From: Angustibacter luteus
GTDB lineage: Bacteria; Actinomycetota; Actinomycetes; Actinomycetales; Angustibacteraceae
Assembly: GCF_039541115.1 (NCBI RefSeq)
Contig: NZ_BAABFP010000005.1
Coordinates: 558,001-622,000, forward strand
Direction of reading: 5' to 3'
Length of the DNA stretch: 64,000 bases
Position numbers and translations under genes: made by a program. This document shows, piece by piece, positions 11,177-24,948 of this stretch (its first letter is position 1; every line of letters starts with the position of its first letter). The notes beneath the pieces were generated by a model. It did not search any database. It had not been told where the DNA came from and was given only the letters and a program-made list of their open reading frames with translations.

Positions 11177-11259
11177 GTCCGGGTGGCGGAATGGCAGACG
11201 CGCTAGCTTGAGGTGCTAGTGCCCTTAGGGGCGTGGGGGTTCAAGTCCCCCTCCGGACA
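11177..11259 (+). tRNA. tRNA-Leu(GAG)
   Basis: GTCCGGG/TCCGGAC acceptor stem, D-loop GGAATGGCAGAC, anticodon loop TTGAGGT, long variable arm, T-loop TTCAAGT. Confidence 0.96.
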
Positions 11260-11287
11260 CCCATCGAACGGCAGTACGATCCGGCGC

Positions 11288-13772: not shown

Positions 13773-14708
13773 ATGGACGACGTCGTCGAGACACGGGGTC
13801 TGCAGAAGCGTTTCGGGAGCGTGCGCGCACTCGACGGGCTCGACCTGTCCGTGGCGCGCGGTGAGATCCACGGCTTTCTCGGGCCCAACGGGGCCGGCAA
13901 GTCCACGACGATCCGGGTCCTGCTCGGACTGGCCCGCGCGGACGGCGGCACCGCGCGGGTGTTCGGCCAGGACCCCTGGGCGGACGCCGTGGAGCTGCAC
14001 CGGCGGATCGCCTACGTCCCCGGGGACGTCAGCCTGTGGCCGAACCTGTCCGGCGGGGAGATCGTCGACCTGATCAGCCGTCTGCGCGGCGGCACGTCGG
14101 ACGCGGCCGGGTACGCGGCGCGCCGCCGCAGACTGCTCGAGGTGTTCGAGCTGGACCCGAGCAAGCGGGGTCGGGCCTACTCCAAGGGCAACCGGCAGAA
14201 GGTGGCCCTGGTCGCCGCGTTCGCCACCGAGGCCGAGCTGTACGTCCTGGACGAGCCGACCAGCGGCCTGGACCCGATCATGGAGACCGTCTTCAACGCC
14301 GAGGTGGAGCGCCTGGCAGCAGCGGGCTCCACGGTCCTGCTGTCCAGCCACATCCTGTCCGAGGTCGAGCGGCTCTGCCATCGGGTGACCATCGTGCGCG
14401 CGGGCCGGACCGCCGAGTCGGGCACGCTGGAGTCGTTGCGCCACCTGACTCGCACCGAGATCTCGTTCGCGGCGAACGGGATCGACCCGGAGTCCCTGGC
14501 GGCGATCGACGGCGTCCAGGACGTGACCGCCCTGGGCGGCCGGATCGCCCTGACGGTGGACAGCGACACGCTCACCACCGTCCTCCCGTCGATCACGGGG
14601 CTGGATGTGCGCGGGCTGACGGTCAACCCGCCATCGCTGGAGGAGCTCTTCCTGCGGCACTACGGCGAGGAGCTCGCCGCCACCGAGCACGCCGAGGGCG
14701 ACCGTTGA
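13773..14708 (+). CDS. ABC exporter ATP-binding subunit
   Basis: GPNGAGKST, YSKGNRQK, LDEPTSGLDP, SSH. Confidence 0.93.
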   Translation: MDDVVETRGLQKRFGSVRALDGLDLSVARGEIHGFLGPNGAGKSTTIRVLLGLARADGGTARVFGQDPWADAVELHRRIAYVPGDVSLWPNLSGGEIVDLISRLRGGTSDAAGYAARRRRLLEVFELDPSKRGRAYSKGNRQKVALVAAFATEAELYVLDEPTSGLDPIMETVFNAEVERLAAAGSTVLLSSHILSEVERLCHRVTIVRAGRTAESGTLESLRHLTRTEISFAANGIDPESLAAIDGVQDVTALGGRIALTVDSDTLTTVLPSITGLDVRGLTVNPPSLEELFLRHYGEELAATEHAEGDR

Positions 14709-16324
14709 CCACGTTCGGTCCTCTGCTGCGGCAACGGGTGCGCCGGGACCGCTGGCAGCTGGCGCTGTGGGTCGCAGGGACCGGCATCATGGCGGCCTTC
14801 TCGACCTCCGCGATCGCCCAGAGCTACGGGGACGACAGGTCTCGGCGGGCGATCATGCTGCTGGCGACGGAGAACCCGTCGATCCTGATGCTGCGCGGCC
14901 TGCCGGCCGGCTACGGCTTCGGCGCCTTCACGTTCTTCGAGATCTACGCCTTCCTCGCGCTGCTGGCGGGCCTGATGAGCACCTTCCTCGCCGTGCGGCA
15001 CACCCGGGCGGAGGAGGAGAGCGGTCGGGCGGACCTGGTGACGGCCACGCCCGCGGGGCGGACCGTGCCCTTGGTGGCGACCCTGGCTCATGGACTGCTG
15101 GCGAACGTCGTGCTCGGGCTCGTCGTCGCACTGGGATTCCTCAGCGCTGGCCTGCCGGTCACGGGCTCCTTCGTGGCCGGTGCGGCCGTGGCAGCAGCGG
15201 GGCTGGCGTTCCTCGGCCTGGGACTCGTGTGCGCCCAGTTCCTGCGCACGTCGCGCGGCGCCAACGGCGCGGCGGCCGCGCTCGTCGTCCTCGCGTACCT
15301 CCTGCGCGGCCTGGGTGACTCGCTGTCTCGGCCGGGCGCCGACGAGCTGCACCGCGTGGCCGCGTGGCCGAGCTGGCTGTCGCCCATCGGGTGGGGACAG
15401 CAGACCGGCGCCTGGACCGGGAACGCGCTGTGGCCGCTGCTGCTCAGCCTGTGCTTCACCGGTGCCTGCGGCGCCGGGGTCCTGGTCCTGCAGGAGCGTC
15501 GGGACACGGGCGCGAGCCTGCTGCCGTCCCGCCGCGGCCGGGACCGCGCCCGCCCGGCACTTGGCAGTCCGTCCGCCCTGGCCTGGCGCCTGCAGTGGCC
15601 GACCATCCTCGGCTGGTGCGTCGGCGGCGCGGCCACGGGGCTCCTGGCGGGATCGTTGACCCACCTGGTGGACCAGGTCTCGGATGCGGACGAGAACGTC
15701 GTCGACACCTTGCGCTCGATGGTTCCCGGGACGACGCAGACGCTCACCCAGCTCCTCATCGCGGCCATGTTCGGCGTGGCTGGGGTACTCGCCGCCGCGT
15801 GCGCCGTCCAGGTGGTGCTCCGACTGCGCCAGGAGGAGAGCGCCGGCACCGCAGAGGTGCTGCTGGCCACGCCCGTGGACCGGACGCGCTGGCTGCTCGA
15901 CTACGTCGTGCTGGGCGTCGTCGCGGTCGTCCTCGTGATGGCCGCCACGGCGGTCGCCGCCGCGCTCGCGCTGCTCGGGTCGGGTGAGGACGTGGCCCGC
16001 GTGGGCGACGCCTTCGTCGCCGGCCTGGCCCAGCTGCCCGCCGCCCTGCTGTACCTCGGCGTCCTGGCGCTGGGGTTCGTGTTCCTGCCCGGCGTGGTGA
16101 TCGGGCTGGGCTGGGGACTGCTGGCCCTGGGGGTCGCGCTGGGCACCTTCGGCGGCATGGTCGGTGCCCCGCAGTGGTTGCGCGACCTGTCCCCCTTCAC
16201 CCACACGCCGGTCCCCGGGGCGGGGGTGGCCAGCTGGACCGGCGGGCTGTGGATGCTCGCTCTGGCCGTCGCGGCGACGGCTTTGGCCGCATCCGGCATG
16301 CGTCGGCGCCAGCTCCGCCCGTGA
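14705..16324 (+). CDS. ABC-2 exporter permease (polyketide/antibiotic exporter type)
   Basis: TTG start overlapping the upstream TGA; duplicated RAEEESGR / RQEESAGT motifs, WLSPIGW, LSPFTH. Confidence 0.85.
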   Translation: MTTFGPLLRQRVRRDRWQLALWVAGTGIMAAFSTSAIAQSYGDDRSRRAIMLLATENPSILMLRGLPAGYGFGAFTFFEIYAFLALLAGLMSTFLAVRHTRAEEESGRADLVTATPAGRTVPLVATLAHGLLANVVLGLVVALGFLSAGLPVTGSFVAGAAVAAAGLAFLGLGLVCAQFLRTSRGANGAAAALVVLAYLLRGLGDSLSRPGADELHRVAAWPSWLSPIGWGQQTGAWTGNALWPLLLSLCFTGACGAGVLVLQERRDTGASLLPSRRGRDRARPALGSPSALAWRLQWPTILGWCVGGAATGLLAGSLTHLVDQVSDADENVVDTLRSMVPGTTQTLTQLLIAAMFGVAGVLAAACAVQVVLRLRQEESAGTAEVLLATPVDRTRWLLDYVVLGVVAVVLVMAATAVAAALALLGSGEDVARVGDAFVAGLAQLPAALLYLGVLALGFVFLPGVVIGLGWGLLALGVALGTFGGMVGAPQWLRDLSPFTHTPVPGAGVASWTGGLWMLALAVAATALAASGMRRRQLRP

Positions 16325-16334
16325 TCGCGCGTCG

Positions 16335-17528
16335 CTAGTCCTCGAAGGTCTCGGACCCGGTCGGCTCGACGTGCTGGGTGTCGTTCATCCGCTGGCGCAG
16401 CTTGGCCAGCTCGTAGTACATCGTGCGCCGGGCGCGGTTGGAGTTCCCGAGCGGCTGGTGCTCGGTCAGGCTGTGCCACGGGTTGTACCGCAGCGCGTCC
16501 GCGAACCGCAGCTGCGCGTCGGAGTCGAAGCGCTGCCGCACCAGCCGCAGCTCGGCGACCGGAACATACGGGGACAGCCGCTCGGGCCAGTGCACGCAGG
16601 CGTTCTCGATCGGCATGCGGTGGGGATCGGTCTGCACCTGCACCATGAAGTCCATCAGCCAGTCGCCGTCGGCCAGGGTGGAGGAGATCGCGTCCCGCAG
16701 GTAGTTCTCCTTCGCGTGCACCGGGATCCGCGACCGGCCCTGCTGTCGCGGCCTCAGCGAGTACTGCACGGCCTGGCCGGGCCCCAGCAGGAAGGGCACG
16801 TTGCTGTAGTAGCGATCCTCGACCGGGTTGGCGTGCATGGGCGAGTAGAGCAGCTGCATCGCCAGGTGAATCCAGTGCTTGGGGTTGAACGCGTAGCCCA
16901 GGGGCGCCTTCGCGCGCACCCAGCGCTGCATCTTCGCGTTCTCCTTGATGTCCGGGGTCACGAAGGCCGCGGGCGTCACCAGGATGAGGTCCTGGGTGCC
17001 CTGCTCGTCCTCCATCAGCTTCGGGCCAGGGACGCCCATCACCTTGATCCCCACGGAGCACTGCCCGAAGTCCTCCAGGTCCGGCGGGGCGAAGGGTCCG
17101 GGCCCGGAGAACCGCACCCACGCCGGGTACACCCCGGGAGTCGCGAACAGCCCGTGCCGCAGGGGCTCAGGGACGTCGTCGCGCACCGTGAACTCGGCCC
17201 GGAGCACGCCGTAGGTCTTGGTGTTGCCGAAGCGCTGGACCGCGCCGGGAAGCCAGTTCTCCCGCATGAACAGGGCGATCTCGTCGATGATCTGCTGGAC
17301 CAGACGGTCCTCGTCGGGTAGGAGCCGCTCCTGGGCCAGCTCAAGGTGCTCGTCGCGCCGGAAGAGGTTCTGCAGCCACTGCGCGGACGCGAAGAGCGGC
17401 GGTCGCAGCCACCGGTCGAACCAGCGCCGGTACAGGAACTCGAAACGGCGTTCCACCCTCCAGATCCAGAGCACCAGGTCGCTGAGCGGTCGCAGGACGT
17501 AGAACGTGAAGGCCCCCTGCGGGTTCAC
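16335..17528 (-). CDS. Catalase-related heme protein with atypical distal pocket (397 aa)
   Basis: GTG 17528 in a GTGA overlap with AGGAG RBS. WVRFS, QDLIL, DFMVQ, IENACVHW, YNPWHSLTEHQPLGNSNRARRTMY (proximal Tyr region). Distal His position reads RFGNTK. Confidence 0.82.
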   Translation of the reverse strand: MNPQGAFTFYVLRPLSDLVLWIWRVERRFEFLYRRWFDRWLRPPLFASAQWLQNLFRRDEHLELAQERLLPDEDRLVQQIIDEIALFMRENWLPGAVQRFGNTKTYGVLRAEFTVRDDVPEPLRHGLFATPGVYPAWVRFSGPGPFAPPDLEDFGQCSVGIKVMGVPGPKLMEDEQGTQDLILVTPAAFVTPDIKENAKMQRWVRAKAPLGYAFNPKHWIHLAMQLLYSPMHANPVEDRYYSNVPFLLGPGQAVQYSLRPRQQGRSRIPVHAKENYLRDAISSTLADGDWLMDFMVQVQTDPHRMPIENACVHWPERLSPYVPVAELRLVRQRFDSDAQLRFADALRYNPWHSLTEHQPLGNSNRARRTMYYELAKLRQRMNDTQHVEPTGSETFED

Positions 17529-18946
17529 GTCGCCGCTCCTGGGCCCGCAGCCGCACGGGTCGCCAACCAGCGCAGGGCGCTGATACCGGGGAGGAAGAAG
17601 TAGCCGCCGCCGCGGACCCGCACGAACTGTGGCAGGTCCCGGTAGCGCCGGCGCACCGGTGTCGCCGGAGCCGAGAACGTCGCCCCGGCTCCCCGGCCGG
17701 TGCCGACCCGGACGCCGACCAGCGGGTCGGACGCGTCGTCCAGCAGGTTGAAGCCCGGGTCGTTCAGCCAGCTGTGCTGGATGAACTCGAACTGGCGGGC
17801 GAGGTTCGCGTTGAGGCAGAGGAAGTACAGCCCCTGCTCGACCGTGCCGTCCTCGCGCTGCGTCCGGTAGGCGCGGCCGCGGCGCAGGATCCGGTGCCGG
17901 CGATTGACGTCCAGCGAGGACGCCGTCCCGGGCTTCGGCGCCAGGGCGTCGCGGGGGTTGGCGCGTCGTACGTGCGCGCCGATCGGGCACCCCAGCCCAT
18001 CCGCGTCGTTGGCGTGGTAGCCGAACTCGTTCGCCTCCGCGTGAGTGGGGTTGTCCTGCTGCGGGTCCAGCGTCAGCGGCGCACCGCTGGGCCAGCGGCC
18101 GACGAGCTGCGCACCGAGCAGTGCGGCGGCTGCCGGGTCGGCGCTGCCGTCGCTGCGCCGGGTGGCGTCGGCCAGGTACTCGTGGAAGGCGTCGACGTGC
18201 TGCTCCAGCTGGCGGAGCACGAGGTAGGAACCGTTGCGCCCGAGGTCGGCGGCGCCGTCCGCCCGGGGCAGCAGGCGTTCGGGGTCGGCCGAGTCGGCGA
18301 GCAGTGGCCGCTCCGTCAGCTGCCCGTACTCGTTGGGGTACCCGAGGACGAACTCCCCGGACCGGACGGCGCCGGGCGGGTCACTCGCCCCCGGCAGGCC
18401 GGTCAGCAGCGGCTGGGAGATGCCGTCGTGGAAGCCGAACGGCTCGTTCGGACCCAGCGTGTCCGTCGCGAGCTCGCCGGCCAGGGCGAGGCCGCTGCCC
18501 TCGGCCTGCGCGACCAGCTCTGTCTGCAGCTGGGTCAGTGCGGCGGCGCTGGCCGCGTAGACCAGCACCAGCACGTGCACCGTCGGCGTGGTCGGGCCAC
18601 CCCAGTCCCAGGTGGCCGGACCGTCGTCCCCCTGGTCGCCCAGCAGCCGGCTCCGGTACGCCGTCGCCATGCCGGTGGTGAACTGCTGCGAGAAGCCGGC
18701 GGTCACCCCGTCGCCGGCGAGCGCGCGCACGCCCTCGGCGGTCAACGCCACCTGGATCGCGCTGTCCTGCACCCGTTCCAGCGCCGAGGTGACCCGGCCC
18801 GCCCAGTCAGCCAGGACGGTCCCGGCGGCGGCGGACTCACGCACCTCCAGCAGGAGGAACGTGGCCTCGGGCAACGCCCCGTGTCCACGCAGGACCAGGC
18901 CCTGGATGTCCGCGAGGTCGAGGTCGCGGGTGGCTGTCGCGGTCAC
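17525..18946 (-). CDS. DyP-type peroxidase (473 aa)
   Basis: DIQG, EPFGFHDGISQP (GxxDG), GAHVRRANPR, HRILRRG, QFEFIQ; GTGA overlap start. Confidence 0.9.
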   Translation of the reverse strand: MTATATRDLDLADIQGLVLRGHGALPEATFLLLEVRESAAAGTVLADWAGRVTSALERVQDSAIQVALTAEGVRALAGDGVTAGFSQQFTTGMATAYRSRLLGDQGDDGPATWDWGGPTTPTVHVLVLVYAASAAALTQLQTELVAQAEGSGLALAGELATDTLGPNEPFGFHDGISQPLLTGLPGASDPPGAVRSGEFVLGYPNEYGQLTERPLLADSADPERLLPRADGAADLGRNGSYLVLRQLEQHVDAFHEYLADATRRSDGSADPAAAALLGAQLVGRWPSGAPLTLDPQQDNPTHAEANEFGYHANDADGLGCPIGAHVRRANPRDALAPKPGTASSLDVNRRHRILRRGRAYRTQREDGTVEQGLYFLCLNANLARQFEFIQHSWLNDPGFNLLDDASDPLVGVRVGTGRGAGATFSAPATPVRRRYRDLPQFVRVRGGGYFFLPGISALRWLATRAAAGPGAAT

Positions 18947-20217
18947 AGCAGGGCCAGCCACTCGGCGGCCTGCGGCTGGTCCGGATGGCCCGCGAGGCCC
19001 CGGCGCAGGGCGGCGTTGCGGTCGATCCGGGGTGCGTGCAGCTCGGGGTAGGCGGAGTACCAGACCACCGTGGGCACCTGGTGACGGCGCAGGTAGCGCT
19101 TGAAGGCTGTCTCGTCGCGGGCGCCGCCGAACAGCAGCCAGCGGGTGGACGGGTAGCCGACACCGTTGCTGAACACCAGGTTCAACCCCCACGCCAGGCG
19201 GTCGATGAAGTCGTTCATGTAGCTCTCCTGGCTGCCGTCATAGCTGCTGGCGAAGACCAGCCGGCGCCCGCCGTCCAACGGCACCCACCGGGCGAAGTGC
19301 AACGACGTCACCCCGGCCAGCGTGTGGCTGTTGAACACCAGCCGGTTTCCCAGGTCGAGGCCGAGGAGAGCGACCCGCATCGTCGTGGCCCGGACGAATC
19401 CCGGTTTGACGAAACCCACTGCGGTGAACGGGTTCTGGGTGGCCCAGTCCTCGTACTGCTCCACGTCGTGGACGTGGTCGAGGTCCACCGGTCCGGTCTC
19501 CGGAACGTCCCGCAGCTCGTGCACCCGGAGCAGGAGCAGGAAGACCACCAGCACCACGACGAGCAACGGCAGCAGGACGAGGGCGACGAGTCCCAGGGCC
19601 ACGAGCACGACGAGCGAACGCAGCTTGGAGGGCGAACCCGCCCGCGAGGCGGGGTGGCGCGCCCACCCGAGGTCGGCCCGGTCCGTGACGGCGTCGCGCA
19701 GCCGGGCGTGCAGGGAACGGGCGTCAGCACCAGCACGGACGTTCGCCGGCAACCCGTCCACCTCGTCGGCCAGGGCCGCGCTCAGCGCCGCCTCGTCGAG
19801 GACCTGTCGCAGGGTCCGCCCGATCGTGTGCACGTACACGGCGGCCGGGCGCAGGCTGTGCTCGGTCAGCCAGGCCACGCGTCCCTGCACCGAGGGGTGG
19901 GCCGGGTATCCGAGGCACCGCCCGAACAGCGCGTCCAGGCCCGGTCCGGCCACGGTCGCCAGCTCCAGCAGGTGGGCGGGCTCGTCGGTGTCGACGTCGC
20001 ACATGTAGACCAGCGACGGCGCGATGGTGCGACCCTCCAGGTCCTCGACCTCCTCCAGCACGAAGACCCGGGCGAAGTGCACGCCGTACAGGGACCCGAA
20101 GGGCAGCATCGAGTCGCCGCCACCGGCGGCGCGGATCTCGCGCAGCAGCGCGATCGTGTCCCCGACGGCGCCGTCGGCGAGGGTCGCCCGCACCGTGACG
20201 GCCGTCTGCCTCGTCAC
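18943..20217 (-). CDS. Uncharacterised membrane protein with two internally repeated HFAR domains
   Basis: GVHFAR...GLDALFGRCLGYP and SLHFAR...GLNLVFSNGVGYP flank a hydrophobic segment. Confidence 0.8.
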   Translation of the reverse strand: MTRQTAVTVRATLADGAVGDTIALLREIRAAGGGDSMLPFGSLYGVHFARVFVLEEVEDLEGRTIAPSLVYMCDVDTDEPAHLLELATVAGPGLDALFGRCLGYPAHPSVQGRVAWLTEHSLRPAAVYVHTIGRTLRQVLDEAALSAALADEVDGLPANVRAGADARSLHARLRDAVTDRADLGWARHPASRAGSPSKLRSLVVLVALGLVALVLLPLLVVVLVVFLLLLRVHELRDVPETGPVDLDHVHDVEQYEDWATQNPFTAVGFVKPGFVRATTMRVALLGLDLGNRLVFNSHTLAGVTSLHFARWVPLDGGRRLVFASSYDGSQESYMNDFIDRLAWGLNLVFSNGVGYPSTRWLLFGGARDETAFKRYLRRHQVPTVVWYSAYPELHAPRIDRNAALRRGLAGHPDQPQAAEWLALL

Positions 20218-20221
20218 GCGG

Positions 20222-20707
20222 TCAGCTCTCGCCGACCGGACTGCGCAACGTGAACCAGCCGACCCGCTTGCGCCACATCCACACCACGCCGAGATAGAGG
20301 CCCGGTGCGACCAGCCGGATCTCGTCGCGCACCATCCGGGCCACCTCGGACGTTCGCGAGTAGTCCAGGACCACGCAGTCGCGGTCGTCGACCCAGCTCG
20401 GGACGACGTCCAGCTGGGCCGGGATCAGCCGCAGCCGCAGGGGGCTGACCTTGTTCTTGAGCAGGCGGTGCTCGTGGCTGACGACCTTGCCCTGCCAGGC
20501 GACCACGTAGATGGCGGCGGCGAGCGGTTTGGCGACCGCAGTGCCCGGGAACATCAGCACGGTGCCGCGCATGTTGCCGCTCGGGACGTCGCCGGAGGGG
20601 CTGACCCGGAACAGCGCGTCGAGCTCGCGGTTGGTCATGGCGAGCAGCCGGGGCTCGTCGACCAGCAGACCGACGGGCGCAGGCTCTCCGGAGGGTTCAG
20701 CGGTCAT
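20222..20707 (-). CDS. Uncharacterised protein (161 aa), possibly a GXWXG/DUF4334-like beta-barrel
   Basis: ELDALF..., WQGK, VLDY, VRDEIRLVAPGLYLG, WFTL; GAGGAG RBS. Confidence 0.7.
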   Translation of the reverse strand: MTAEPSGEPAPVGLLVDEPRLLAMTNRELDALFRVSPSGDVPSGNMRGTVLMFPGTAVAKPLAAAIYVVAWQGKVVSHEHRLLKNKVSPLRLRLIPAQLDVVPSWVDDRDCVVLDYSRTSEVARMVRDEIRLVAPGLYLGVVWMWRKRVGWFTLRSPVGES

Positions 20708-20868
20708 CGACGCGCTCCTCTCGTCGACCGACCGGACGACGTCCGGCCGGACGATTCCACGATCCTCTGCCCTTGATCGTCTTGTAAAGGAGATGCCCGT
20801 TGACACTGCTGGCCGCGCGCTGCGACTGTGGCCATGCCGTCAGGCCGCCTGCGAAAGGGGCGCAGCCC

Positions 20869-21231
20869 ATGGATCCGAGCCTGGCCCGGAAGCTGCTCGC
20901 GGCCGTGCGCCTGGTCAACGGGGTGCTCGGCCTGCTGGCCCCGTCTTTCCTGCTGCGCCGTCTGGGGACGGACCCGGCGGTCGACCGCTCCGGCTACTAC
21001 CCGTTCCGGATGTTCGGCGTCCGCACCATCGTGATCGGGGCCGACCTCCTGCTGCTGCAGGGTGAGCAGCGCCGGCGCGCCGTCCGCCTCGCCGTCCTGA
21101 TCCACGCGTCGGACACGGTGTCCGCCGCCACGGCCGGGCTGCGCGGCGACCTCCCCCGCAAGCCCGCCGTCATCACCACGGCGATCTCCGCCACCAACAC
21201 CGCGCTCGCGATCATCGCCACCCGGGAGTAG
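20869..21231 (+). CDS. Small membrane protein (120 aa, DUF4267-like)
   Basis: Several hydrophobic segments, RMFGVRTIVIG; stop 4 nt before the dioxygenase ATG. Confidence 0.7.
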   Translation: MDPSLARKLLAAVRLVNGVLGLLAPSFLLRRLGTDPAVDRSGYYPFRMFGVRTIVIGADLLLLQGEQRRRAVRLAVLIHASDTVSAATAGLRGDLPRKPAVITTAISATNTALAIIATRE

Positions 21232-21235
21232 CGCC

Positions 21236-23059
21236 ATGGCACGAACGTCTCCGTACCGCTCCGGCCTGGTCTGGACGGTGTACGACCGGATCTGCGAACG
21301 GATCGACCGCCGGGTCGGCTGGGACAAGCTCCCCCGCCCGCTGGCGCTGCTGCTCCTCATCGGCATCCGCAACAACCTGCGCCGCGAGAACCTCTTCGAC
21401 ACGAACGTCGCGCCCGCCACGAACCTGCCGCCGCTCTCGGAGCCGTCCGCGCAGACCCGGTCCCAGCGCACGCCCGATGGCACCTACAACGACCTCGAGA
21501 CCCCACGCATGGGCATGGCGGGAGCCCGGTTCGGCCGCAACGTCCCGCTCGCCGCAGGGGCAGCCGAGACCGGCGACCGGCTGATGACCCCCAACCCGCG
21601 GGTGGTCAGCCGCCGGCTGATGACCCGGACGACCTTCCAGCCGGCGACGACCGTGAACGTCCTGGCGGCCACCTGGATCCAGTTCATGGTCAAGGACTGG
21701 TTCTCGCACGGCGCCGGCGACGCGACCCGGCCGTTCGACGTGCCGTTGCCCGACGGCGATCCCTGGCCGACTCCGCCCATGCTGGTCCCGCGGACGCTGG
21801 CGGACCCCACCCGCAGCGGTCAGGAGGACGGGTACCCGCCCACCTTCACGAACATCAACACGGCCTGGTGGGACGGCTCCTCCATCTACGGGAGCAGCAC
21901 CGACCAGCAGCGGGTCATCCGCTCCGGCGTCGACGGCAAGCTGAACGTGTCCGCCGACGGCATGCTGATCCTGCCCGACGACCCGAGCCTGAACCCCACG
22001 CTGGTCCCCGGGTTCTGGACCGGACTGGCGATGATGGGCGGCCTGTTCACGCTGGAGCACAACGCGGTCTGCGACCACCTGAAGGCGGCCAACCCGACCT
22101 GGTCGGACGAGGAGCTCTTCCAGCGCGCCCGCCTGGTGGTCTGCGCGCTCATCGCCAAGATCCACACGGTCGAGTGGACACCCGCCATCATCAGCCACCC
22201 GACCACGGTGACCGCCCTGCGCGCGAACTGGTTCGGGCTGGTCGGCGAGCGCTTCACCCGAACCTTCGGCCGCATCAGCGGCAGCGAGATCCTCAGCGGG
22301 ATCCCGGGCTCGGAGACCGACCACTACGGCGTGCCCTACTCCCTCACCGAGGAGTTCTCGATCGTCTACCGGATGCACCCGCTGATCCCGGACGACTACG
22401 CGGTGCGGTCCGCGGTCGACGACGCGCACATCGCCGACTACACGTTCCGGGACCTGGCCGGGCCGGCCGGCGGTCAGGTCCTGCAGGACGTCGCCATGGC
22501 CGACCTGCTGTACAGCTTCGGTACGGCCAACCCCGGCGCCATCGTGCTGAACAACTTCCCCCGCTTCCTCCAGGAGTTCGAGCGCCCGGACGGCAAGCTG
22601 GCCGACCTGGCGGCCACCGACATCCTGCGCACCCGCGAGCTGGGCGTCCCGCGCTACAACGAGTTCCGGCGGCTGCTGCACCTCGACCCGGCGACCAGCT
22701 TCGCCGACCTCACCGGCGGGGACCACGGGCTGGCCGCCACGCTGGACGACGTCTACGGCGGCGACCTCGAGGCCGTGGACACGATCGTCGGCATGTTCGC
22801 CGAGCAGCGCCCGACCGGCTTCGCGTTCAGCGACACGGCGTTCCGGATCTTCATCCTGATGGCGTCGCGGCGGCTGAACAGCGACCGGTTCCTCAGCTCC
22901 GACTTCACTCCCGAGGTCTACAGCCCGGCCGGGTTCGCCTGGGTGCGGGACAACGGGTTCACGTCCGTCCTGCTGCGCCACTACCCCCAGCTGCGGCCGT
23001 GCCTGCACGGCGTCAAGAACCCGTTCGCCCCCTGGGTGAGCAGTAGCGGGCCGGCCTGA
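21236..23059 (+). CDS. Fatty-acid alpha-dioxygenase-like heme enzyme (peroxidase-cyclooxygenase superfamily)
   Basis: RTPDGTYNDL, FGRN, WIQFMVKDW, WWDGSSIYG, AKIHTVEWT, EEFSIVYRMHPL, RELGVPRYNEFRR, MASRRL.SDRF. Confidence 0.9.
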   Translation: MARTSPYRSGLVWTVYDRICERIDRRVGWDKLPRPLALLLLIGIRNNLRRENLFDTNVAPATNLPPLSEPSAQTRSQRTPDGTYNDLETPRMGMAGARFGRNVPLAAGAAETGDRLMTPNPRVVSRRLMTRTTFQPATTVNVLAATWIQFMVKDWFSHGAGDATRPFDVPLPDGDPWPTPPMLVPRTLADPTRSGQEDGYPPTFTNINTAWWDGSSIYGSSTDQQRVIRSGVDGKLNVSADGMLILPDDPSLNPTLVPGFWTGLAMMGGLFTLEHNAVCDHLKAANPTWSDEELFQRARLVVCALIAKIHTVEWTPAIISHPTTVTALRANWFGLVGERFTRTFGRISGSEILSGIPGSETDHYGVPYSLTEEFSIVYRMHPLIPDDYAVRSAVDDAHIADYTFRDLAGPAGGQVLQDVAMADLLYSFGTANPGAIVLNNFPRFLQEFERPDGKLADLAATDILRTRELGVPRYNEFRRLLHLDPATSFADLTGGDHGLAATLDDVYGGDLEAVDTIVGMFAEQRPTGFAFSDTAFRIFILMASRRLNSDRFLSSDFTPEVYSPAGFAWVRDNGFTSVLLRHYPQLRPCLHGVKNPFAPWVSSSGPA

Positions 23060-23068
23060 CCCTCGCGG

Positions 23069-23308
23069 TCAGGCAGCGCCGACCAGCGCGGCGAGCTCCT
23101 CGCGGGCGTAGCGCCGGACCAGCAGTGGCACGAACGCCTGCACCTTGGCGTCGGCGAACCGGCTGGCCACCTGGTCCAGGCACTCGTCGACCTGGTGCGG
23201 GTCGACGCGCGCGTCGAACTCCTCGTGCAGCATCCGGCTGATCCCGACGAGCTCGTCGCGCGGGGTCTCGACGACGAGCGGGGCGCTGGCAACCGTGGCG
23301 ATGCTCAT
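23069..23308 (-). CDS. Small three-helix-bundle (DUF3562-like) protein
   Basis: RFADAKVQAFVPLLVRRYAREEL motif; CACGCT 6 nt before ATG. Confidence 0.7.
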   Translation of the reverse strand: MSIATVASAPLVVETPRDELVGISRMLHEEFDARVDPHQVDECLDQVASRFADAKVQAFVPLLVRRYAREELAALVGAA

Positions 23309-23430
23309 GAGCAGAGCGTGGGGCGCGAAGGTGAACGGCAGGTGAACACGACACGACTTCCGGGCGCTGATCCTGAGCCCGCGACGGGCGGGTGCCGGCG
23401 GCAGACGGCAGAATCGCCCCGGGAGGTCAC

Positions 23431-24948
23431 GTGGACCAGTCGGTAGGACTCCGCACCGGGACGGCCCGTGGTCGGTGGGTCCTGCTGGCCACGGTCCTGG
23501 GCAGCGGGATCGCGTCCCTGGATGCGACGGTGGTGAACATCGCGCTCCCCACCATCGGGCGCGACCTCGGCGCGACCCTGGCCGGCCTGCAGTGGACGCT
23601 GAACGGCTACACGCTGACGCTGGCCGCGTTCATCCTGCTCGGCGGCTCGCTCGGCGACGTCTGGGGTCGTCGGCGGATCTTCCAGATCGGCACCCTGGCC
23701 TTCGCCGCCACGTCGCTGCTGTGCGCGCTGGCCCCGACGATCGAGGTGCTGGTCGGCGCCCGGATCCTGCAGGGCGTCGCCGGCGCGCTGCTCACTCCGG
23801 GGTCGCTCGCCATCATCGCCGCGTCCTTCTGCGCGCGGGACCGGGCCGCCGCGATCGGCGCCTGGTCGGGCTTCAGCGGAGTGACGGCCGCGGCCGGGCC
23901 GTTCGTCGGCGGCTACCTGATCCAGCACCTGTCCTGGCGCTGGATCTTCCTGATCAACCTGCCGCTCGCGCTCCTGGTGGTGGTGATCGCCCAGCGGCAC
24001 GTACCGGAGAGCCGGGATGTCGATGCACCGCGCCGCACGGACGTCGCCGGGGCACTGACCTGCGTGCTGACCCTCGCCCTGCTCACGTTCGGACTGATCC
24101 GCTGGGGCGCGGACGGGATGAGCCCGCTGGTGGCGTCGTCCCTGGTGACTGCGGTGGCCGCCGGCATCGGCTTCGTCGTCGTCGAGCGCCGCAGCTCGCA
24201 CCCGATGATCCCGCTCGACATCTTCCGGTCCACCCGGTTCACCGCCGCGAACCTGGTCACGTTCCTGATGTACGCCGCCCTCGCCGGGGTCTTCTTCCTC
24301 CTGTCCCTGCAGCTGCAGATCGTCTCCGGCTTCTCTCCCATCGCCGCCGGGGCAGCTCTCCTGCCCGTGACGGCACTCATGCTGCTCGGGTCTGCCCGGG
24401 TGGGACGGCTGGCCCAGCGTTTCGGGCCGCGACCGTTCATGACGGTCGGCCCACTGGTCTGCGCCGTCGCCATGCTGCTGCTGCGCCAGGTCGGTGTCGG
24501 GGCGAGCTACTGGTTCGACGTGCTGCCGGCCATCGCCGTCTTCGGGGTGGGGCTGACGCTCACGGTGTCCCCGCTGACCACGGCGGTCCTCACCTCCGCC
24601 CCACAGCGGCACTCGGGTGTCGCCTCCGGGGTCAACAACGCGGTCGCCCGCACTGCCGGCCTGCTCGCCGTGGCGGTGCTGCCGCTGGCCGCCGGGATCG
24701 GCGAGAGCAGCTACCTGGTGCCCGCGCAGTTCGACGCCGGCTACCAGCGAGCGCTGATCGGGTGCGCGGTCCTGCTCGCCACCGCAGGGGTGCTGTCGGC
24801 GCTGCTCATCGGCAGCCGGGGACTGACCCCGGAGCACGAGCCGACGGCCAGCGAGCCGCCGGACCGACCGGCCGAGCGCTACCACTGCGGGGTGGACGCT
24901 CCCGCGCTGGGACGACCGGCATCCCTCACCGACCCTGCAGCTCACTGA
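23431..24948 (+). CDS. DHA2-type MFS efflux transporter
   Basis: LDATVVNIALP, GSLGDVWGRRR, WRWIFLINLP; GGGAGG RBS before GTG 23431. Confidence 0.92.
   Translation: MDQSVGLRTGTARGRWVLLATVLGSGIASLDATVVNIALPTIGRDLGATLAGLQWTLNGYTLTLAAFILLGGSLGDVWGRRRIFQIGTLAFAATSLLCALAPTIEVLVGARILQGVAGALLTPGSLAIIAASFCARDRAAAIGAWSGFSGVTAAAGPFVGGYLIQHLSWRWIFLINLPLALLVVVIAQRHVPESRDVDAPRRTDVAGALTCVLTLALLTFGLIRWGADGMSPLVASSLVTAVAAGIGFVVVERRSSHPMIPLDIFRSTRFTAANLVTFLMYAALAGVFFLLSLQLQIVSGFSPIAAGAALLPVTALMLLGSARVGRLAQRFGPRPFMTVGPLVCAVAMLLLRQVGVGASYWFDVLPAIAVFGVGLTLTVSPLTTAVLTSAPQRHSGVASGVNNAVARTAGLLAVAVLPLAAGIGESSYLVPAQFDAGYQRALIGCAVLLATAGVLSALLIGSRGLTPEHEPTASEPPDRPAERYHCGVDAPALGRPASLTDPAAH

Follow-up and report, generated by a model that had tools for sequence, protein, structure and literature searches.

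The window analysed here is a 64,000-nucleotide stretch of the Angustibacter luteus genome (GCF_039541115.1, NZ_BAABFP010000005.1, positions 558,001-622,000 of the forward strand), within which a six-gene cassette occupies positions 16335-23059. Its genes form two divergent units with the following features, in window positions.

16335-17528, minus strand: catalase-fold haem protein, 397 aa, of a "distal-Asn" clade (PDB profile match)
17525-18946, minus strand: DyP-type peroxidase, class C/V, 473 aa (TIGR01413, active-site residues)
18943-20217, minus strand: HFAR protein, 424 aa (twin HFAR motif, AlphaFold2 model)
20222-20707, minus strand: 161-aa protein (U161), predicted lipocalin/FABP-like barrel (structure model)
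20708-20868, no strand: divergent intergenic region, 161 bp, between the two units
20869-21231, plus strand: 120-aa DUF4267-like helical protein (M120), probably membrane (sub-cut-off Pfam match, hydropathy)
21236-23059, plus strand: fatty-acid alpha-dioxygenase-type enzyme (DOX), 607 aa, peroxidase-cyclooxygenase superfamily (An_peroxidase, PDB matches)

All six ORFs are in frame, with a third-position GC of 0.93-0.97. The layout agreed in full with the original prediction, including the 161-bp divergent gap, the 4-nt gap between the 161-aa and HFAR genes (20218-20221), and the GTGA overlaps at 18943-18946 (HFAR/DyP) and 17525-17528 (DyP/catalase-fold). No sigma-70 promoter consensus was found in the divergent region, and a terminator scan at the locus gave results at chance level. 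An ABC transporter (13773-16324) and an MFS gene (23431-24948) were considered as cassette members and rejected, as in the only congener carrying the cassette the homologues of both are found at a distance from it. Export of the cassette proteins at this locus was also rejected, solely by a crude check for Tat motifs.

The dioxygenase matched An_peroxidase in Pfam (E 3e-101), and its best PDB matches were the alpha-dioxygenases (alpha-DOX) of rice (4KVJ) and Arabidopsis (4HHR) at E 1e-117, compared with 1e-18 for COX. It keeps the catalytic Tyr (Y378) and proximal His (H381; rice Y379/H382), the stacking Phe residues F374 and F536, F531, and the set that positions the carboxylate and C2 (H310, R546, and T315; rice H311, R559, and T316), with residue roles taken from the accessible text of PMC8720084. 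Among 82 relatives, the equivalents of H311, T316, R559, Y379, H382, F375, and F549 were invariant, and that of F552 was kept in 81. The full alpha-DOX fatty-acid site supports the peroxidase-cyclooxygenase/alpha-dioxygenase identity claimed earlier, and from these residues the enzyme likely oxygenates fatty acids at C2. Homology to the plant and cyanobacterial alpha-DOXs (rice, Arabidopsis, CalDOX, and LepDOX) is full-length and the catalytic and substrate residues are common, whereas the distal His of the characterized enzymes (rice H157) is replaced by Lys (K153), which the original prediction had overlooked. The 82 relatives carried Arg (62), His (15), or Lys (5) at this position. Since the distal His is described as "partially conserved" across the family in the accessible text of PMC8720084, K153 is compatible with alpha-DOX membership; actinobacterial homologues already appear in the phylogeny of that paper, and their gene context is not described in the same text. 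The idea that the dioxygenase lost its distal His because partner proteins prime it was rejected, as Lys or Arg does not follow the presence of the module: the distal residue was Arg in 11, Lys in 3, and His in 1 of 15 module-bearing dioxygenases, and His in 14 of the 39 dioxygenases of HFAR-anchored loci.

The catalase fold of the 397-aa protein is visible at profile level only, with matches to MAP2744c (3E4W, E 3.6e-6) and coral AOS (1U5U, E 0.15); neither Pfam nor a single-sequence search of the PDB gave a match. The proximal R367-x3-Y371 is kept, and both R367 and Y371 were present in 120 of 120 homologues. On the distal side, R99-F-G101-N102 stands where R-x-x-H is expected, with N102 replacing the His and G101 the preceding Thr, and Asn occupied the distal His position in all 120 homologues and in all 50 locus matches covering it. 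The distal Asn of the D-x4/5-N motif is replaced by V184/T185, with Ser/Thr in 120/120, a register set by alignment only; one profile comparison, circular because its target was inside the alignment, served solely to view this register. In coral AOS/HPL the distal set is T66/H67/N137 (PMC5617202). The uniform change from His to Asn thus indicates that the protein is neither a catalase nor an AOS/HPL of the coral/Nostoc type. Of the earlier claims, the catalase-fold identity was supported by the 3E4W profile and the proximal Tyr, while the analogy to AOS/HPL was not supported, the distal Thr-His and Asn being replaced. The distal Asn has a parallel in hydroperoxide-rearranging P450s, which use such a residue according to the accessible part of PMC13049297. 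A Trp/Phe/Arg-rich amphipathic N-terminus is likely an interfacial membrane anchor.

The DyP peroxidase retains an intact G171-F-H-D174-G175 motif, proximal H325, and distal R356, scores 110 bits against TIGR01413 (cut-off 100.5), and has no Tat motif. Judged by its residues, it alone among the three haem proteins still has its distal acid-base groups intact. Its nearest solved structure is 8RE3, which we take to be a D. radiodurans-type DyP. With class V (C) DyPs such as DrDyP it has in common the GXXDG motif, the proximal His, the distal Arg, a length of about 470 aa, and the absence of a Tat motif (PMC10820274); the same study found the nearest solved DyP inactive at neutral pH and calls the natural substrates of DyP peroxidases unclear.

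For the HFAR protein, both HFAR motifs and a hydrophobic segment at residues 196-238 were found, in line with the twin-HFAR membrane protein that had been proposed. The family comprises 3,686 clusters and has no Pfam entry, and this protein drew no match in Pfam or, searched both as a single sequence and as a profile, in the PDB. Its AlphaFold2 model (pLDDT 90) predicts a tandem ABM-type dimeric alpha+beta barrel made of two ferredoxin-like units, each with one conserved His (H47 and H307); Tyr333 and Asp76 are also conserved. At its centre the model places a helical hydrophobic hairpin (196-236, with a break at P217), a predicted membrane anchor, and of a diverse set of 124 HFAR proteins 115 carry the hydrophobic run. 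The model matched WhiE-ORFI (9LMN; Z 14.4, rmsd 4.1, 225 aligned), the decarboxylase Abx(+)O (9LTX; Z 12.0, rmsd 4.5, 198 aligned), and two further tandem ABM proteins (Z 9.8 and 9.7), with Foldseek E values against ABM proteins of 2e-5 to 4e-5; the haem-binding IsdG/HmoB/MhuD gave Z 3.8-4.8. With WhiE-ORFI and Abx(+)O the predicted fold is common at 13-15% identity, whereas HFAR adds the membrane hairpin, and no polyketide synthase was seen among the cassette neighbours scanned.

The model of the 161-aa protein, at a middling pLDDT of 66, predicts a lipocalin/FABP-like barrel of eight strands. Its best structural match was Tcur_1030 (4MVE, Z 12.4); lipocalins and FABPs scored Z 6-7, values that common barrels also reach. 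The sequence drew no PDB match, either singly or as a profile, and Pfam gave nothing coherent on 71 members of its family. The predicted barrel is likely a lipid carrier. The 120-aa protein lies where the original prediction placed it, and its description as a membrane protein holds as likely only, given weak hydrophobicity (max KD19 1.71) and a DUF4267 score of 22.3 bits, below the cut-off of 27.8. Of 64 relatives of the protein, 41 matched DUF4267 at E up to 0.1, and the invariant polar residues are Y44, R47, R52, H79, D82, S107, and N110. No other gene accompanies the dioxygenase as constantly as this one (43/80 loci).

When loci from other bacteria were compared, the six families co-occurred far above chance. 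Where metagenomic HFAR loci had 4 kb or more of flank on each side (18 loci), DyP was present in 18, the catalase-fold and 161-aa proteins in 17 each, the dioxygenase in 15, and the 120-aa protein in 13. DyP came after HFAR in every one of the 50 loci whose downstream flank reached 1.5 kb or more, and the dioxygenase was found in 33 of them. Across 400 genomes of the class, in which kin are not independent, the dioxygenase was present in 5 of the 7 that have a full HFAR gene and in all 4 that carry the close catalase clade, compared with 30 overall. Seen from the dioxygenase, the coupling is asymmetric, another point that the original prediction had missed: of 80 dioxygenase loci, 9 held the complete set, in varied gene order, and 15 held HFAR. 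The remaining 65 lacked HFAR and 18 of these held a GMC oxidase, which indicates a dioxygenase independent of the module. Conversely, five dioxygenase-free HFAR-DyP loci (L103, L120, L170, L178, and L180) contained a P450 or enzymes of the GMC, ALO-type, or galactose-oxidase-like kind; the peroxide used by the DyP unit may therefore be H2O2 rather than a lipid hydroperoxide. Patatin or lipase-type hydrolases adjoin the module in several loci, and the host genome carries two WS/DGAT genes. No lipoxygenase was seen among the 44 neighbours scanned of 83 listed, mostly from dioxygenase-free loci.

The families are also joined by fusion. Among 38 long HFAR homologues there were 34 HFAR-DyP and 3 HFAR-DyP-catalase fusions. 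In some loci the U161 barrel precedes HFAR in one chain, fused to its N-terminus; in L019 and L040 it follows the dioxygenase, fused to the C-terminus of that enzyme, and a catalase-related domain that bears the His is fused to the dioxygenase in L044. P450-HFAR and P450-HFAR-DyP fusions exist as well, their P450 matching generic bacterial P450s only. The accessible text of PMC9719856 describes DyP subclass V4 as unexplored P450-transmembrane-DyP fusions whose middle consists of "some transmembrane regions", a layout that fits the P450-HFAR-DyP fusion P0278; that text neither recognises the ABM barrel nor ties DyP to an alpha-dioxygenase gene. Because the families co-occur and fuse elsewhere, non-co-occurrence, named beforehand as the first refuting outcome, is ruled out, and the claimed association of the dioxygenase with the four-gene operon was upheld. 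These findings indicate that the six genes are a real conserved cassette, shuffled in order and recurring across many bacteria. It is patchy and mobile, being present in one of five same-genus genomes and at a different site there, and our literature searches found no published description of it.

As to function, we consider it about evenly balanced whether the cassette encodes a membrane module that makes a 2-hydroperoxy fatty acid and intercepts it, yielding a 2-hydroxy fatty acid and an oxidised co-substrate. The unstable 2-hydroperoxide would be captured by the partner proteins before decarboxylation. In the most firmly grounded step, the Tyr378 radical would take the C2 hydrogen from a fatty acid held by His310, Arg546, and Thr315. 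The lipocalin-like barrel would then pick up the hydroperoxide at the dioxygenase and deliver it to the HFAR unit, as its fold and its fusions in both directions suggest. Adjacency and fusions further suggest that the HFAR hairpin would tether both DyP and the catalase-fold protein to a lipid droplet or to the cytoplasmic membrane. The last step is the least certain: the hydroperoxide may be the oxidant for DyP, and the distal-Asn catalase-fold protein may work not as a catalase, AOS, or lyase but as an isomerase or a hydroperoxide reductase/peroxygenase. The lipid reading draws on the recurrence of the lipocalin-like barrel, the membrane hairpin, and the patatin/lipase neighbours. Thus the lipid-hydroperoxide pathway originally envisaged is favoured by the alpha-DOX site and by these recurrent clues, but not in its AOS/HPL-type processing; a signal or defence metabolite as its end product is a hypothesis. 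Counting against the interception reading are the 65 dioxygenase loci that lack HFAR, the dioxygenase-free HFAR-DyP loci, the distal Lys/Arg that sets the dioxygenase apart from characterised alpha-DOXs, the inactivity of the nearest solved DyP at neutral pH, and the middling U161 model. In plants, alpha-DOX1 and the caleosin CLO3 make 2-HOT on lipid droplets, as given in the accessible part of PMC13543774. The cassette would resemble this Arabidopsis pair, in function only, in combining an alpha-dioxygenase with a haem enzyme at a lipid surface and in converting a 2-hydroperoxide to a stable 2-hydroxy acid, whereas none of the six proteins matched caleosin in Pfam, and DyP, the catalase fold, the ABM barrel with its hairpin, and the lipocalin-like barrel would act in its place. 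A bolder version, which we put forward tentatively and consider rather doubtful, is a widespread membrane assembly in which the alpha-hydroperoxy fatty acid is made as an oxidant, shuttled by the lipocalin, and presented by the ABM barrel on its hairpin anchor to DyP and to the catalase-fold enzyme, whose distal Asn would carry out a new chemistry, the product being a new oxylipin or 2-hydroxy lipid class.

An unlikely alternative is controlled chain shortening, in which the module would speed up and channel the breakdown of the 2-hydroperoxy acid, by decarboxylation to a Cn-1 aldehyde or by dehydration to a 2-oxo acid, with the HFAR barrel or the distal-Asn catalase fold as catalyst and DyP priming the dioxygenase or removing peroxide. 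The nearest folds of HFAR, a polyketide decarboxylase and WhiE-ORFI, fit an aldehyde product equally well, and conservation of His47/His307, Tyr333, and Asp76 gives these residues a catalytic look, but a common fold proves no function. The accessible text of PMC9305512 gives the aldehyde as the default alpha-DOX end product and at the same time reports that the 2-hydroperoxy acid decarboxylates spontaneously, which leaves an enzyme unneeded. Catabolic alpha-oxidation is made less likely by a crude motif scan for aldehyde dehydrogenases, which found none in the ORFs adjoining 75 loci.

Less probable still is peroxide-driven tailoring, in which the HFAR-DyP-catalase-barrel core would oxidise a hydrophobic substrate with whichever peroxide comes from upstream, be it a fatty-acid hydroperoxide made by the dioxygenase or H2O2 made by an oxidase of the GMC, ALO-type, or galactose-oxidase-like kind. 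The greater constancy of DyP after HFAR (50/50, against 33/50 for the dioxygenase), the flavin/copper oxidases or P450 of dioxygenase-free HFAR loci, and the P450-HFAR(-DyP) fusions that match subclass V4 (PMC9719856, accessible text) all favour it. However, 15 of the 18 long-flanked HFAR loci carry the dioxygenase, and the barrel is fused straight to it in L019 and L040; this reading also overlaps our preferred one, the main difference being which product matters.

It is improbable that the locus is an oxidative-stress or haem-handling island, whose co-located proteins detoxify peroxides or bind haem without substrate hand-over. Peroxide scavenging is a classic role of DyP and catalase folds, some ABM barrels (IsdG/HmoB/MhuD, at low Z) bind haem, and the cassette is patchy and mobile; yet the distal His needed for H2O2 turnover is lost in two of the three haem proteins, the dioxygenase produces peroxide and removes none, and repeated fusions imply coupling.

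By established chemistry, allene-oxide or lyase reactions require an allylic system or conjugated diene that is absent when a saturated or branched acid carries its hydroperoxide at C2, and a coral/Nostoc-type oxylipin pathway with the catalase-fold protein as AOS or HPL on the dioxygenase product is highly improbable. The profile-level fold, the His-bearing fusion in L044, and the Nostoc punctiforme 10S-DOX with its catalase-related lyase (cited in the accessible part of PMC13049297) lend it some support, and those systems and the coral AOS/HPL-LOX fusions likewise combine a haem dioxygenase with a catalase fold bearing a proximal Tyr, but here the dioxygenase has the substrate residues of alpha-DOX rather than 10S-DOX/COX, the T66/H67/N137 set (PMC5617202) is G101/N102/V184-T185, and four more conserved genes are present.

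Prior work on bacterial alpha-dioxygenases has treated them as aldehyde biocatalysts rather than in a native pathway. The cassette points to a 2-hydroperoxy fatty acid as a candidate oxidant for class V DyP, provides a fold and gene context for the large HFAR family, and proposes two uncharacterised kinds of active site, with Lys or Arg at the distal position of an alpha-DOX and Asn at that of a catalase fold. If the preferred interception reading is true, the cassette would be a bacterial counterpart of the plant alpha-DOX/caleosin defence pathway made of unrelated parts, and the first step to 2-hydroxy fatty acids may need neither ATP nor NAD(P)H. The bolder oxidant version, if true, would give class V bacterial DyPs their first physiological substrate and the 3,686-cluster family a function.

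The cassette consists of a leftward operon (catalase-fold protein, DyP, HFAR protein and 161-aa barrel protein) and a rightward pair (120-aa protein and dioxygenase). Re-reading the sequence bore out the original prediction in its structural details: six ORFs of the stated sizes, a divergent gap of 161 bp, two gaps of 4 nt and two overlaps at GTGA. Each gene is present in one copy in the host genome, third-position GC is 0.93–0.97 in all six ORFs, and the GC of the region is no different from that of the rest of the window. The positioned features are as follows.

11177–11261, plus strand, tRNA-Leu(GAG), ~5 kb to the left of the cassette
13773–16324, plus strand, DrrA-like ABC exporter pair, flanking the cassette
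16335–17528, minus strand, catalase-fold protein
17525–18946, minus strand, DyP
18943–20217, minus strand, HFAR protein
21236–23059, plus strand, dioxygenase
23070–23309, minus strand, small reading frame of 80 residues, just beyond the dioxygenase
23431–24948, plus strand, MFS transporter, flanking the cassette

The exporter pair and the MFS transporter were rejected as cassette members because they are unlinked to it in congeners, and the 80-residue frame had no Pfam match and was not seen to recur among cassette neighbours. Homologues of the genes lying between the tRNA and the cassette are scattered in a congener, so this stretch may be a variable island. One of five congeners carries the whole cassette, at 77% DNA identity and in a place linked to neither flank, and its gene order is identical in a genome of another family (G217). 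The six genes travel together, without the flanking transporters.

Co-occurrence was examined from both sides. At the best 80 of 590 genome matches to the dioxygenase, we found the 120-aa gene at 43 loci, DyP at 18, the catalase-fold gene at 17, HFAR at 15 and the barrel at 14, counts that include a few distant DyP and catalase paralogues; all six genes occurred at nine loci, in several gene orders. The best 80 of 567 metagenome matches to HFAR, mostly on short contigs, were accompanied by DyP (70), the barrel (65), the catalase-fold gene (42), the dioxygenase (39) and the 120-aa gene (36), and the 18 loci with at least 4 kb on each side gave 18, 17, 17, 15 and 13, respectively. These counts uphold the expectation that the six families co-occur elsewhere. 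Across 400 genomes of the class, the dioxygenase was detected in 30 (one, G031, unpublished), the full HFAR gene in seven, five of which also carry the dioxygenase (on a different contig in two), and the close catalase clade in four, all with the dioxygenase. The Fisher test for association (p ~3e-5) overstates its strength, since related genomes are not independent.

The dioxygenase matches An_peroxidase (Pfam), and its closest solved structures are the rice and Arabidopsis alpha-dioxygenases (E = 1e-117 and 5e-113), with cyclooxygenases far behind (1e-18). When residues were scored against the rice list of PMC8720084, the catalytic Tyr, proximal His, carboxylate-binding His and Arg, and C2-positioning Thr were invariant in all 82 sequences from the 80 loci, as were two of the three stacking/channel Phe (the third in 81). 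Given these residues and best matches, C2 oxygenation of fatty acids is strongly inferred. The distal His site is Lys153 here; it is Arg in 62, His in 15 and Lys in 5 of the 82 sequences, and Arg in 16, His in 14 and Lys in 9 of 39 further dioxygenases from HFAR-anchored loci. PMC8720084 had already recorded family members in Actinobacteria and described the distal His as "partially conserved". In a tree of 114 dioxygenases, with every HFAR-anchored locus labelled as module, the label changed 19 times versus at least 30 in shuffles, and it was found on His, Arg and Lys branches.

The HFAR family comprises 3,686 clusters at 50% identity. The confident HFAR model (pLDDT 90, pTM 0.90) predicts two ferredoxin-like units and a helical hairpin at residues 196–236. 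Structurally it comes closest to WhiE-ORFI (Z 14.4) and to Abx(+)O, a decarboxylase (Z 12.0), both of them tandem ABM barrels. Among 124 diverse members, His47, Asp76, His307, Tyr333, Phe337 and Pro356 are 98–100% conserved, and a strongly hydrophobic segment, predicted to be a membrane anchor, is present in 115. For the 161-aa protein, a middling model (pLDDT 66) predicts a barrel of eight strands. Its nearest structural match is Tcur_1030 (Z 12.4, TM 0.60); lipocalins and FABPs come next, with scores at background level. The 120-aa protein resembles DUF4267 at a score below the cut-off, and seven polar residues invariant across 64 family sequences suggest a putative binding or catalytic site.

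The DyP exceeds the TIGR01413 cut-off, with 8RE3 as its nearest solved structure. Its GFHDG motif, His325 and Arg356 are conserved across loci, and it alone among the three haem proteins has an intact distal acid-base set. The Deinococcus DyP is reported to be inactive at neutral pH, and DyP substrates are called unclear (PMC10820274). The catalase-fold protein had no Pfam or NCBIfam match, and a profile of 18 relatives reached MAP2744c, a small catalase-related protein (E = 3.6e-6), as well as a catalase (0.016) and coral AOS (0.15). It retains the proximal R-x3-Y motif, and its distal R-x-x-H motif reads R99-F-G101-N102. Asn occupies the distal-His site in every one of 120 homologues, and likewise in each of the 50 (among 57) close locus matches that cover it; the distal Asn site is Val/Ser-Thr. 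The first 60 residues (14 aromatics, 10 Arg, high hydrophobic moment) are consistent with an interfacial anchor. In G217 the gene (L177:6496-7688) is broken into two frames near residues 265–285, either an assembly error or a genuine break.

Fusions join these proteins in several ways. Of 38 long HFAR homologues, 34 are HFAR-DyP and three HFAR-DyP-catalase fusions; the barrel is fused to HFAR in L006, P0097, P0122, P0285 and P0286 and to the dioxygenase in L019 and L040; and P450-HFAR (P0352) and P450-HFAR-DyP (P0278) fusions also occur. The I-helix motif of the P0352 P450 is altered. In P0352, P0278, P0272, P0291 and L180:10290-11510, HFAR is fused to or lies beside a P450, a His-type catalase domain or an endonuclease/exonuclease/phosphatase domain. 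In a Streptomyces locus (L044:3427-11809), an alpha-dioxygenase is joined to a catalase-related domain of the His type, and the locus also holds a free catalase-related gene, the 120-aa gene, a GMC oxidoreductase and a second dioxygenase.

The alpha-dioxygenase product yields the Cn-1 aldehyde by spontaneous decarboxylation (PMC9305512). Because the barrel is fused variously to the producer or the membrane unit, next to an intact peroxidase and to a haem that has a Tyr ligand and a pocket unlike that of catalases, we infer that these components would intercept the 2-hydroperoxide before decarboxylation. Reduction or peroxygenation to the 2-hydroxy acid has, in our judgement, an even chance of being the outcome. 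The known parallel is plant alpha-DOX1 with the caleosin CLO3, which produce 2-HOT on lipid droplets (PMC13543774); the host genome has two WS/DGAT genes. Channelled chain-shortening, in which the module would itself carry the product to the shorter chain, is unlikely; a crude motif scan near 75 loci found no aldehyde dehydrogenase.

HFAR is absent from 65 of the best 80 dioxygenase loci, and a GMC oxidoreductase lies near 18 of these, usually separating the 120-aa gene from the dioxygenase. In this second arrangement (L014:7669-11797 and 17 other loci, mostly Streptomyces) a trypsin-like protease often comes next (the protease is present at 14 of 80 loci), and the GMC resembles choline oxidase and fatty-acid photodecarboxylase to much the same degree. 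Where HFAR-DyP has no dioxygenase nearby, the locus holds a GMC (L103, L120, L128, L170), an oxidase of the ALO type (L178) or, in L180, a P450 with a galactose-oxidase-like gene, so the DyP unit may accept several peroxide sources. Optional partners on both sides count against a fixed six-gene pathway. A general peroxide-driven tailoring unit is improbable. Lipid-type neighbours are recurrent, not universal: small patatins at 5 loci, a hydrolase with GHSFG at 7, a large patatin-like protein bearing a GVSGG motif at 4 and a class 3 lipase in L103. The GHSFG nucleophile-elbow protein (~450–530 aa, Pfam-less) adjoins the module in L001, L002, L006, L061, L096, L106 and L177 and is paired with a subtilase in six of these seven.

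Plain detoxification by the haem enzymes is very improbable. Least probable is the AOS/HPL chemistry drawn by analogy in the original prediction: the distal-Asn clade falls outside both AOS/HPL and catalases because equivalents of T66, H67 and N137, used by coral AOS and HPL (PMC5617202), are replaced. By analogy, N102 may resemble the distal Asn that several hydroperoxide-rearranging P450s put over the iron (PMC13049297).

A full-text literature search, with most subscription papers outside its coverage, found no description of the six-gene cassette, and no paper among the matches listed combined "alpha-dioxygenase" with "dye-decolorizing". The closest earlier description is that of DyP subclass V4, a layout of P450, transmembrane regions and DyP that PMC9719856 terms unexplored. 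The logic of pairing a dioxygenase with a hydroperoxide-using haem enzyme is known; the parts of this cassette, and probably its chemistry too, are not.
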